IMG/VR virus record: IMGVR_UViG_2541047778_000011
From: a virus
Taxonomy: Duplodnaviria; Heunggongvirae; Uroviricota; Caudoviricetes
Direction: 5' to 3' (one strand)
DNA length: 25,141 nt
Shown here: positions 8,491 to 8,817 of the stretch, piece by piece
Layout of the letters: each line of letters begins with the position of its first letter
How positions within the stretch are numbered: the stretch's first letter is position 1
Position numbers and translations under genes: made by a program
The notes under the pieces: model-generated
Databases searched by the model: none
Seen by the model: the letters and a program-made list of their open reading frames with translations, nothing else
What the model was told of the DNA's origin: nothing

Positions 8491-8817
8491 ATGAAAAGAC
8501 GCCTTTTACTACTTTTTCTGTTATCTGTCCTGGCAGTGGGATGCTCGCAGCAAAAAGCTGATGAGCCCCGGCAATTAGTGACGGTGTATCCACGATATCC
8601 GGAATATGCTGCAGCAAATTATATCAAGGGGCTGGTTGAGGTTAAGTTCGATATTGGTGCTGATGGGACTGTGACACGGATCGTTTTTCTCCGCTCAGAG
8701 CCTCATAATTTGTTTCGTGATGAAGTGGTGAAGGCCATGGCGAAATGGCGATTTGAAAAGAATCGCCCCTGTCAGGGAGTGAAGAGACAATTTATCTTTA
8801 CGCCGTCACGTCCTTGA
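8491..8817 (+). CDS. Small lipoprotein with a TonB C-terminal-like domain (putative envelope protein)
   Basis: 108-aa product MKRRLLLLFLLSVLAVGC-SQQ... with lipobox LAVGC, then a YPxxAxxxxxxGxVxVxFxIxxDGxV...WRF pattern (YPRYPEYAAANYIKGLVEVKFDIGADGTVTRIVFL...AMAKWRF) characteristic of TonB_C folds. AGGAA ribosome-binding site 6 nt upstream. Confidence 0.7.
   Translation: MKRRLLLLFLLSVLAVGCSQQKADEPRQLVTVYPRYPEYAAANYIKGLVEVKFDIGADGTVTRIVFLRSEPHNLFRDEVVKAMAKWRFEKNRPCQGVKRQFIFTPSRP

Follow-up and report, generated by a model that had tools for sequence, protein, structure and literature searches.

We have analyzed a 25,141-nucleotide stretch of viral DNA (Caudoviricetes; IMG/VR record IMGVR_UViG_2541047778_000011), referred to below as the window, and in particular one short gene at 8491-8817. 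This encodes a small lipoprotein with the C-terminal domain of TonB, which we call the TonB_C lipoprotein. The gene and the parts of its product are as follows.

8481-8484, plus strand: ribosome-binding site AGGA, 6 nt 5' of the ATG; annotated as a ribosome-binding site in phage 21
8491-8817, plus strand: coding sequence of the TonB_C lipoprotein, ATG to TGA, 108 amino acids, stop codon included; RefSeq WP_000830178.1, phage 21 CPT_21_73
8491-8544, plus strand: predicted lipoprotein signal peptide (residues 1-17) and lipidated Cys18; lipobox LAVGC, Ser at +2
8545-8565, plus strand: short flexible tether, residues 19-25 (SQQKADE), where the confidence of the AlphaFold2 (AF2) model is low
8566-8799, plus strand: TonB C-terminal domain, residues 26-103, equivalent to Escherichia coli TonB 153-230, from profile, alignment, AF2 and Foldseek

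The TonB C-terminal domain and its predicted lipid anchor

The Pfam family TonB_C (PF03544) matches residues 33-99 with E = 7.3e-13 and 49.2 bits, where the gathering cut-off is 24.6, and the TIGR01352 tonB_Cterm model gives 47.4 bits against a cut-off of 27.1. On searching the PDB with phmmer, structures of the E. coli TonB C-terminal domain are found first (1u07, 1xx3, 2gsk and 2grx, E ~ 1e-14), and residues 24-103 align without a gap to E. coli TonB 151-230 with ~40% identity. The structure was predicted using AF2 from an alignment of 23 sequences, giving a mean predicted local distance difference test score (pLDDT) of 87.4; this replaced an earlier, poor run on six sequences with a pLDDT of 61. 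The score is 97-98 over residues 31-100, while it averages about 56 for residues 11-20 and climbs to 84 for residues 21-30. The model has helices at residues 38-42 and 76-83 and strands at 47-55, 61-70 and 94-103. These elements fit the fold that a TonB C-terminal domain adopts, i.e. a short helix, a two-strand hairpin, an amphipathic helix and the β3 strand. When the model was compared with the PDB using Foldseek, the top 11 matches were all C-terminal domains of TonB or FusB, with root mean square deviations (rmsd) of 0.9-1.5 Å to E. coli TonB (E = 1.7e-8 for 1u07). Chains of TonB bound to a receptor are among them, with rmsd = 1.0 Å over 79 columns for 2gsk_B and 0.9 Å over 75 columns for 2grx_C. 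A search against the BFVD library of viral folds returned no match with E ≤ 0.001.

Because the profile scores, the sequence matches in the PDB and the fold all agree, the domain identity is confirmed; it is real and robust, and far beyond chance. A preliminary description of this DNA had read a TonB C-terminal domain in the mature part of the protein and had named a Pfam search and structure prediction as checks, and both have now borne it out. One detail of its motif string requires correction, since the residues given there as FD are F75-R76-D77.

The protein begins with MKRRLLLLFLLSVLAVGC followed by SQQ, with a basic n-region and a hydrophobic core ahead of a lipobox that ends at Cys18. 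A regular expression of the PROSITE PS51257 type matches LAVGC at Cys18, with Ser and not Asp in the +2 position. The 108-amino-acid prophage lipoprotein of the preliminary description is therefore confirmed by both the open reading frame on the plus strand and the lipobox. TonB has an uncleaved transmembrane signal anchor; in its place this protein has an 18-residue cleavable lipoprotein signal, leaving a mature protein of 91 residues. A lipobox with a residue other than Asp at +2 is kept in both E. coli alleles of the gene (see below) and in most of the distant short relatives. In E. coli the Lol system sorts lipoproteins with a residue other than Asp at +2 to the outer membrane. Given the Ser in this position, the TonB_C lipoprotein is predicted to reside there. 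It shares its domain family and its fold with the C-terminal domain of E. coli TonB (approximately residues 150-239; 1U07, 1XX3, 2GSK in complex with BtuB and 2GRX in complex with FhuA). However, TonB is located in the inner membrane, whereas the phage protein is predicted to be lipid-anchored, in the outer membrane.

A set of residues is functionally important in the TonB C-terminal domain, namely Y163, F180, G186, F202, W213, Y215 and F230 (bioRxiv 10.1101/2021.12.08.471779). Mapped by alignment, their counterparts here are Y36, F53, G59, F75, W86, F88 and F103, so that six of the seven are identical and only Y215 is replaced, by F88. The YP motif is present as Y36-P37. In a 23-member family alignment that reaches down to ~30% whole-length identity to the window protein, Y36, G59, F75 and W86 are invariant and F103 is at least 90% conserved. 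TonB boxes bind by β-augmentation, as a parallel strand beside β3 of TonB (PMC11658791), and the AF2 model has the β3 strand at residues 94-103. At residue 99 on this strand (codon 8785-8787, corresponding to TonB V226), about half of the short relatives have Lys or Arg. These include both E. coli alleles and the closest relatives of each, but not the true TonB sequences in the alignment. Many TonB boxes start with Asp or Glu, and a salt bridge between a basic residue 99 and the acidic start of a TonB box is conceivable.

The membrane anchor, the proline-rich rod and the 103-149 linker of TonB are all absent from the 108-amino-acid protein. There are only about 7-8 flexible residues between Cys18 and the folded domain, and by alignment the C-terminus ends four residues before that of TonB, leaving residues 236-239 of the latter with no counterpart. 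Five enterobacterial models for full-length TonB equivalogs (of the NCBIfam PRK10819 type) score 45-69 bits against cut-offs of 265-448, and align only via the C-terminal ~85 positions. The product is a member of the TonB_C domain family, and not a TonB energy transducer. In the Ton system, energizing by ExbB/ExbD requires coupling parts that this protein does not have. Without the anchor, the rod or the linker that contacts ExbD, it therefore cannot be energized by ExbB/ExbD.

Genomic setting, transcription and distribution

As a whole, the window represents a phage 21 / DLP12-type lambdoid prophage. Its features, apart from those already listed, are these.

1-687, minus strand: integrase fragment, the open reading frame running off the edge of the window
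773-1986: IS3-family element
2376-2963: Dam methyltransferase
3097-3480: NinX
3687-4049: RusA
4257-4655: Q antiterminator
4844-5986, minus strand: general porin gene, 380 amino acids (Porin_1, E = 2e-151)
6515-6730, plus strand: S21-type holin (pinholin)
6730-7227, plus strand: SAR (signal-arrest-release) endolysin
7212-7685, plus strand: Rz
7444-7626, plus strand: Rz1, embedded in Rz
7717-8010, minus strand: bor/iss lipoprotein gene, the divergent neighbor
8188-8300, no strand assigned: conserved intergenic segment, shared by lambda, HK629 and other lambdoid phages
8336-8473, 8855-8977 and 9024-9206, plus strand: small open reading frames, hypothetical proteins in phage 21
9581-9592, plus strand: lambda-type cohesive end cos, GGGCGGCGACCT
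9769-10317 (Nu1) and 10247-12217 (A): terminase genes, with head and tail genes beyond

The order and strands of these genes agree with the earlier placement of the gene downstream of the lysis cassette and divergent from bor. The position of cos places it in the right-hand end of the phage genome, with the lysis genes on one side and cos and the terminase on the other. The porin, bor/iss and the TonB_C lipoprotein are three genes for predicted envelope proteins that flank the lysis genes. There is no immunity or replication region between the integrase fragment with the IS3 element and the Dam, NinX, RusA and Q genes, and the left end of the prophage may be rearranged or defective.

The prophage Perceval of E. 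coli LF82 carries a gene annotated 'TonB fragment', 99.7% identical to the window gene in DNA and 100% in protein. It is transcribed in lysogens, at 8-fold over the prophage background, and is listed among the morons; those expressed in the lysogen also include the NmpC porin (PMC9928086). The gene is also on the strand of the late operon. In lambda the Q-antiterminated pR' transcript covers the late operon, and by extension this transcript should read through the TonB_C gene. The best match to a Fur box upstream of the gene has 11 of 19 positions, which is the background level, and regulation by iron was rejected on the grounds that no Fur box was found in the window.

Upstream of the gene, the segment 8188-8300 shows 86% conservation between the two TonB_C alleles, more than the 73% of the coding sequence. 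It matches 432 phage records, including lambda and Shiga toxin (Stx) phages, and the annotation of HK629 puts a minus-strand promoter in the corresponding region, upstream of that phage's Bor-like gene. The segment is the bor-promoter region shared by lambdoid phages, and accounts for most of the upstream conservation; a conserved RNA or regulatory element belonging to the TonB_C gene was therefore rejected. An Rfam scan of the upstream region found nothing credible. The 45-amino-acid open reading frame at 8336-8473 is probably not a gene, as the frame is not conserved between the alleles, with indels after about 30 nt.

The window gene has a 100% identical DNA copy in each of phage 21 (CPT_21_73, annotated 'TonB C-terminal domain protein'), ev017 and three ECOR-derived phages. 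Its protein, WP_000830178.1 ('TonB family protein'), is found in 1225 of 5426 complete E. coli genomes, and is intact in 1221 of those carriers. A second allele is present in 415 of the 5426 genomes, and is carried by Stx1a-converting and related phages; its identity to the first is 72% at the protein level and 73% at the DNA level. Between the two alleles the synonymous divergence (dS) is about 1.5, and the ratio of nonsynonymous to synonymous divergence (dN/dS) is 0.12, and 0.11 within the domain. Such a ratio at saturated dS indicates purifying selection and not a decaying fragment. A 418-bp contig of Modestobacter excelsi (NZ_SJEX01000172.1) encodes the first 67 residues of the protein at 100% identity, most likely due to contamination of that assembly with E. 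coli DNA.

Phage 21 also has an operon for the iron/manganese ABC transporter sitABCD (21967-25416 of its record), and sitABCD is carried by all seven clade-1 phage records that have the TonB_C gene. However, TonB_C is missing from at least 13 other Escherichia phage genomes that do have sit, and the second (Stx1a-type) allele occurs without sit. The idea that sitABCD compensates for lost TonB function was rejected for these reasons, and the co-occurrence looks like an effect of lineage, reflecting shared ancestry and not functional coupling.

An exhaustive HMMER search returned 5311 matches at E ≤ 1e-3, a number to be expected for TonB_C. Among the full-length matches, the best are proteins of ~110 amino acids with the same architecture, most of which have a lipobox and some an ordinary signal peptide. 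Compared over the domain alone, the phage proteins show 42-56% identity with these short relatives, and 37-45% with the C-terminal domains of enterobacterial TonB. The lipobox is conserved in relatives whose domain identity is only 36-55%. In each of the five phage or prophage lineages examined, the relative lies between the lysis cassette and the terminase on the late strand. These lineages are

Klebsiella phage ST13-OXA48phi12.4
a Salmonella plasmid prophage
a Sodalis prophage
the E. coli phage 21 type
the Lys8385Vzw/Stx1a type

In two Pantoea/Erwinia loci the TonB_C gene adjoins icd, just upstream of two predicted holin genes. No phage genes were found in Klebsiella and Raoultella loci, where a LacI-family regulator, a glycine-zipper protein, a hydrolase, a GNAT protein and an EAL protein are nearby, nor in other Erwinia loci with araA and panE as neighbors. 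The Raoultella planticola copy, with EAL/GAF and GNAT neighbors, is 85% identical to the protein of Klebsiella phage ST13-OXA48phi12.4, so exchange between phage and chromosome appears to be recent. An HNH endonuclease gene near the copy of Klebsiella sp. R390 hints that some of the 'chromosomal' loci are prophage remnants.

A possible TonB decoy and the alternatives

The preliminary description suggested that the protein could compete with host TonB for TonB boxes, which fits the retained docking domain with its key residues, the loss of all parts that couple TonB to ExbB/ExbD, the predicted place in the outer membrane, the purifying selection and the transcription of the LF82 copy. This is, we think, the best explanation available, although we would put it at somewhat less than an even chance. 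In our tentative model the TonB_C lipoprotein could be an energy-uncoupled decoy that is tethered to the outer membrane and occupies TonB boxes; the outer-membrane location, the binding of TonB boxes and every phenotype are what we infer here. Signal peptidase II would cleave the lipoprotein at Cys18, and the complete TonB C-terminal domain would then hang ~8 residues below its lipid anchor. Transporters, or group B colicins on their way in, would have their TonB boxes held there unproductively, hidden from the scarce host TonB. This should result in a graded damping of all TonB-dependent uptake, and in lower sensitivity to TonB-dependent phages (of the T1 and phi80 type), group B colicins, siderophore-microcins and sideromycins, at the cost of some loss of siderophore and B12 uptake. 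Expression would be expected in lysogens, given the moron behavior of the LF82 copy, and late on the pR' transcript, given the strand and position of the gene. The short N-terminal tether may well be compatible with docking, because the Q160 region of TonB, at the N-terminal edge of the domain, is implicated in recognition of the TonB box.

There are precedents for such a mechanism. When the periplasmic domain of TonB is overproduced in E. coli, TonB-dependent import of iron is reported to be inhibited (Howard et al. 2001, described in PMC9841981). As far as that description goes, the engineered fragments are likewise TonB domains exported without a membrane anchor, but they are artificial, overexpressed, soluble and in most cases longer than the bare C-terminal domain, whereas the phage protein is natural, lipid-tethered and a minimal domain. 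By analogy they offer a laboratory proof of principle for a decoy. The phage lipoproteins Llp and Cor inactivate the TonB-dependent transporter FhuA (PMC11436027; bioRxiv 10.64898/2026.03.26.714494), Cor being the only one listed for FhuA in a 2024 review of superinfection exclusion (PMC11436027). Both are phage exclusion proteins, of T5 (Llp) and of phi80 and N15 (Cor), and Llp is a small lipoprotein located in the outer membrane's inner leaflet. No family named for Llp or Cor occurs among the PHROG matches of our protein at E ≤ 1. Llp and Cor address one receptor each, whereas a decoy based on the TonB domain would in principle address every TonB box. The strongest form of the proposal is that the 91-residue phage lipoprotein, seated on the periplasmic face of the outer membrane, partly uncouples all TonB-dependent transporters and gives the lysogen a broad tolerance to the phages, colicins, microcins and sideromycins named above; this we regard as rather doubtful. 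A role in protecting the phage's own receptor is unsupported, as the receptor of phage 21 could not be inferred; over its last 249 residues, the J protein of this phage has only ~56-57% identity to J from HK629 (a member of Lambdavirus) and to J from the lambda h434 hybrid. The prophage genes that enhance iron acquisition in PMC7724020 are a tail-fiber gene and a hypothetical gene, and are unrelated to the TonB_C gene.

A number of observations weigh against a decoy. The counterpart of TonB Q160 is Y33 (codon 8587-8589), or Leu in the second allele, and those of R158 and R166 are T31 and Y39. R158 and R166, like Q160, are presumed contact residues for the TonB box in TonB. For Q160 the mutation Q160L is reported to restore activity to TonB-box mutants (PMC11658791), so a hydrophobic residue in this position need not abolish binding of the TonB box. 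There is no convincing σ70 promoter upstream on the plus strand, the best candidates having 8 of 12 matches, and no site in the window lies within three mismatches of the 19-mer Fur box. No PADLOC defense model matched at E ≤ 0.01. Our full-text search of the literature gave no data on binding, localization or phenotype for this gene; it returned neither a functional study of it nor a description of a phage TonB mimic. Carriers include adherent-invasive (AIEC) and avian-pathogenic (APEC) E. coli strains. These are generally held to depend on TonB-dependent siderophore uptake, and strong inhibition of that uptake therefore seems unlikely. The relatives in loci where no phage genes were detected imply a native envelope function for the family, which thus need not be a device against phages or colicins. 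Lastly, a late function, or one connected with lysis, could be read from where the gene sits, directly behind the lysis cassette on the late strand.

That last possibility can be developed into an alternative, in which the protein has an accessory role in the envelope or in lysis apart from TonB boxes, the TonB/TolA-type domain acting as a general binding module. Its partners might be peptidoglycan, Lpp/OmpA or some other component of the envelope, and it could modify envelope stability, lysis or serum survival in the manner of Bor/Iss. It would be produced late, along with the lysis genes, and weakly in lysogens. Such a role is supported by the constant position on the late strand after the lysis genes in five lineages, and just before them in the two Pantoea/Erwinia loci. 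Its neighbors bor/iss and the prophage porin are envelope morons, and a general function in the envelope is suggested by those relatives around which no phage genes were detected. Bor/Iss is also a small lipoprotein from the gap between lysis genes and cos in lambdoid phages, but it is unrelated in sequence and fold, lies on the opposite strand, and is associated with serum resistance. Bor is expressed from the lambda prophage. The gap between lysis and terminase genes is, however, a well-known insertion site for morons, so that position alone is weak evidence for an accessory role in lysis. Moreover these phages already own complete sets of holin, endolysin and spanin, and the residues that are retained are precisely those important for the function of TonB. 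We consider the accessory role unlikely on balance, if still a serious contender.

The lysis label of this family in PHROG has a separate origin. In a scan of PHROG the protein matched phrog_1267 (5e-43; 'Rz-like spanin', lysis category) and phrog_34172, together with weak matches at the level of the signal peptide. The first of these could be taken in favor of an accessory role in lysis, and the o-spanin Rz1 is likewise an outer-membrane lipoprotein encoded near the lysis genes. Yet BLASTP against Rz1 found nothing, and the TonB_C protein has a folded 80-residue domain and a gene that is neither embedded in nor adjacent to that of an i-spanin, the oppositely oriented bor intervening. A spanin was therefore rejected, given the absence of similarity to Rz1 and the presence of a separate and complete Rz/Rz1 pair ~800 nt away, beyond bor. 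The label 'Rz-like spanin' on PHROG 1267 is probably wrong, a misannotation by position that is spreading into phage annotations; those members of the family that we encountered are TonB_C lipoproteins that do not resemble Rz1.

The target could instead be the host Ton machinery itself, through a strand-swapped heterodimer with the TonB C-terminal domain or through periplasmic ExbD. TonB would be held at the outer membrane, and here too TonB-dependent uptake would end up inhibited. Isolated C-terminal fragments of TonB do crystallize as intertwined dimers (PDB 1ihr, 1qxx, 1u07, all of them among our PDB matches), and overexpression of tonB is reported to be dominant-negative by gene dosage (bioRxiv 10.1101/2021.12.08.471779). 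Against this, the dimers seen in crystals are not present in vivo, according to the title of PMC3005593. Furthermore the phage protein contains no equivalent of two relevant parts of TonB, residues 236-239 and the segment upstream of residue 150. The former take part in the strand swap and the latter is the segment that contacts ExbD. This explanation appears improbable. We attach a similarly small likelihood to a positive or specific modulator that docks on one transporter or transducer and alters its signaling or gating, for example by keeping a receptor in a state that favors or disfavors one ligand or phage. The divergence at Q160, R158 and R166 and the basic residue 99 could mean a narrowed or altered specificity, and the sitABCD carried by the seven clade-1 phage records is another metal-uptake locus. 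However, no specific partner gene is linked in the loci examined, and the linkage to sit looks like the lineage effect discussed above.

Finally, the protein might have no function and be what is left of a captured tonB fragment, as older annotation names would have it ('TonB fragment', 'partial tonB-like membrane protein'); these names are all that speaks for it. A decaying fragment is effectively refuted by the signature of selection in dN/dS. The ribosome-binding site and the acquired lipobox are also kept in relatives with 36-55% domain identity, almost all carrier genomes have the gene intact, and the LF82 copy is transcribed in lysogens. We therefore regard a leftover as very improbable indeed.

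Implications for TonB-dependent uptake

As a sequence the gene is no discovery, being widespread and already annotated. The novelty is in the architecture, a TonB docking domain that has lost its motor, is predicted to be re-anchored by lipid to the outer membrane and is carried by temperate phages. The database labels 'TonB fragment' and 'Rz-like spanin' are misleading for such a protein. Should a decoy function fail, there would remain a family of solo TonB C-terminal domains behind a lipoprotein or ordinary signal, present in phages and chromosomes of several genera of Enterobacterales.

If the decoy is correct, a very common prophage gene would tune the whole of TonB-dependent uptake in E. 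coli, as a new form of lysogenic conversion. Taking both alleles together, up to about 30% of E. coli could be affected. It would be a new mechanism of exclusion or bacteriocin tolerance that works through mimicry of the host energy transducer, and a natural minimal binder of the TonB box could be a tool for research on TonB. It could bear on therapy with phages that use TonB-dependent receptors, on the ecology of colicins and microcins in the gut, on iron acquisition by pathogens and on susceptibility to siderophore-conjugated antibiotics. In its broadest form, acting on all TonB boxes, the tolerance would extend to sideromycin antibiotics such as cefiderocol. The gene would then be a hidden variable in the phenotypes of iron uptake and sideromycin susceptibility.

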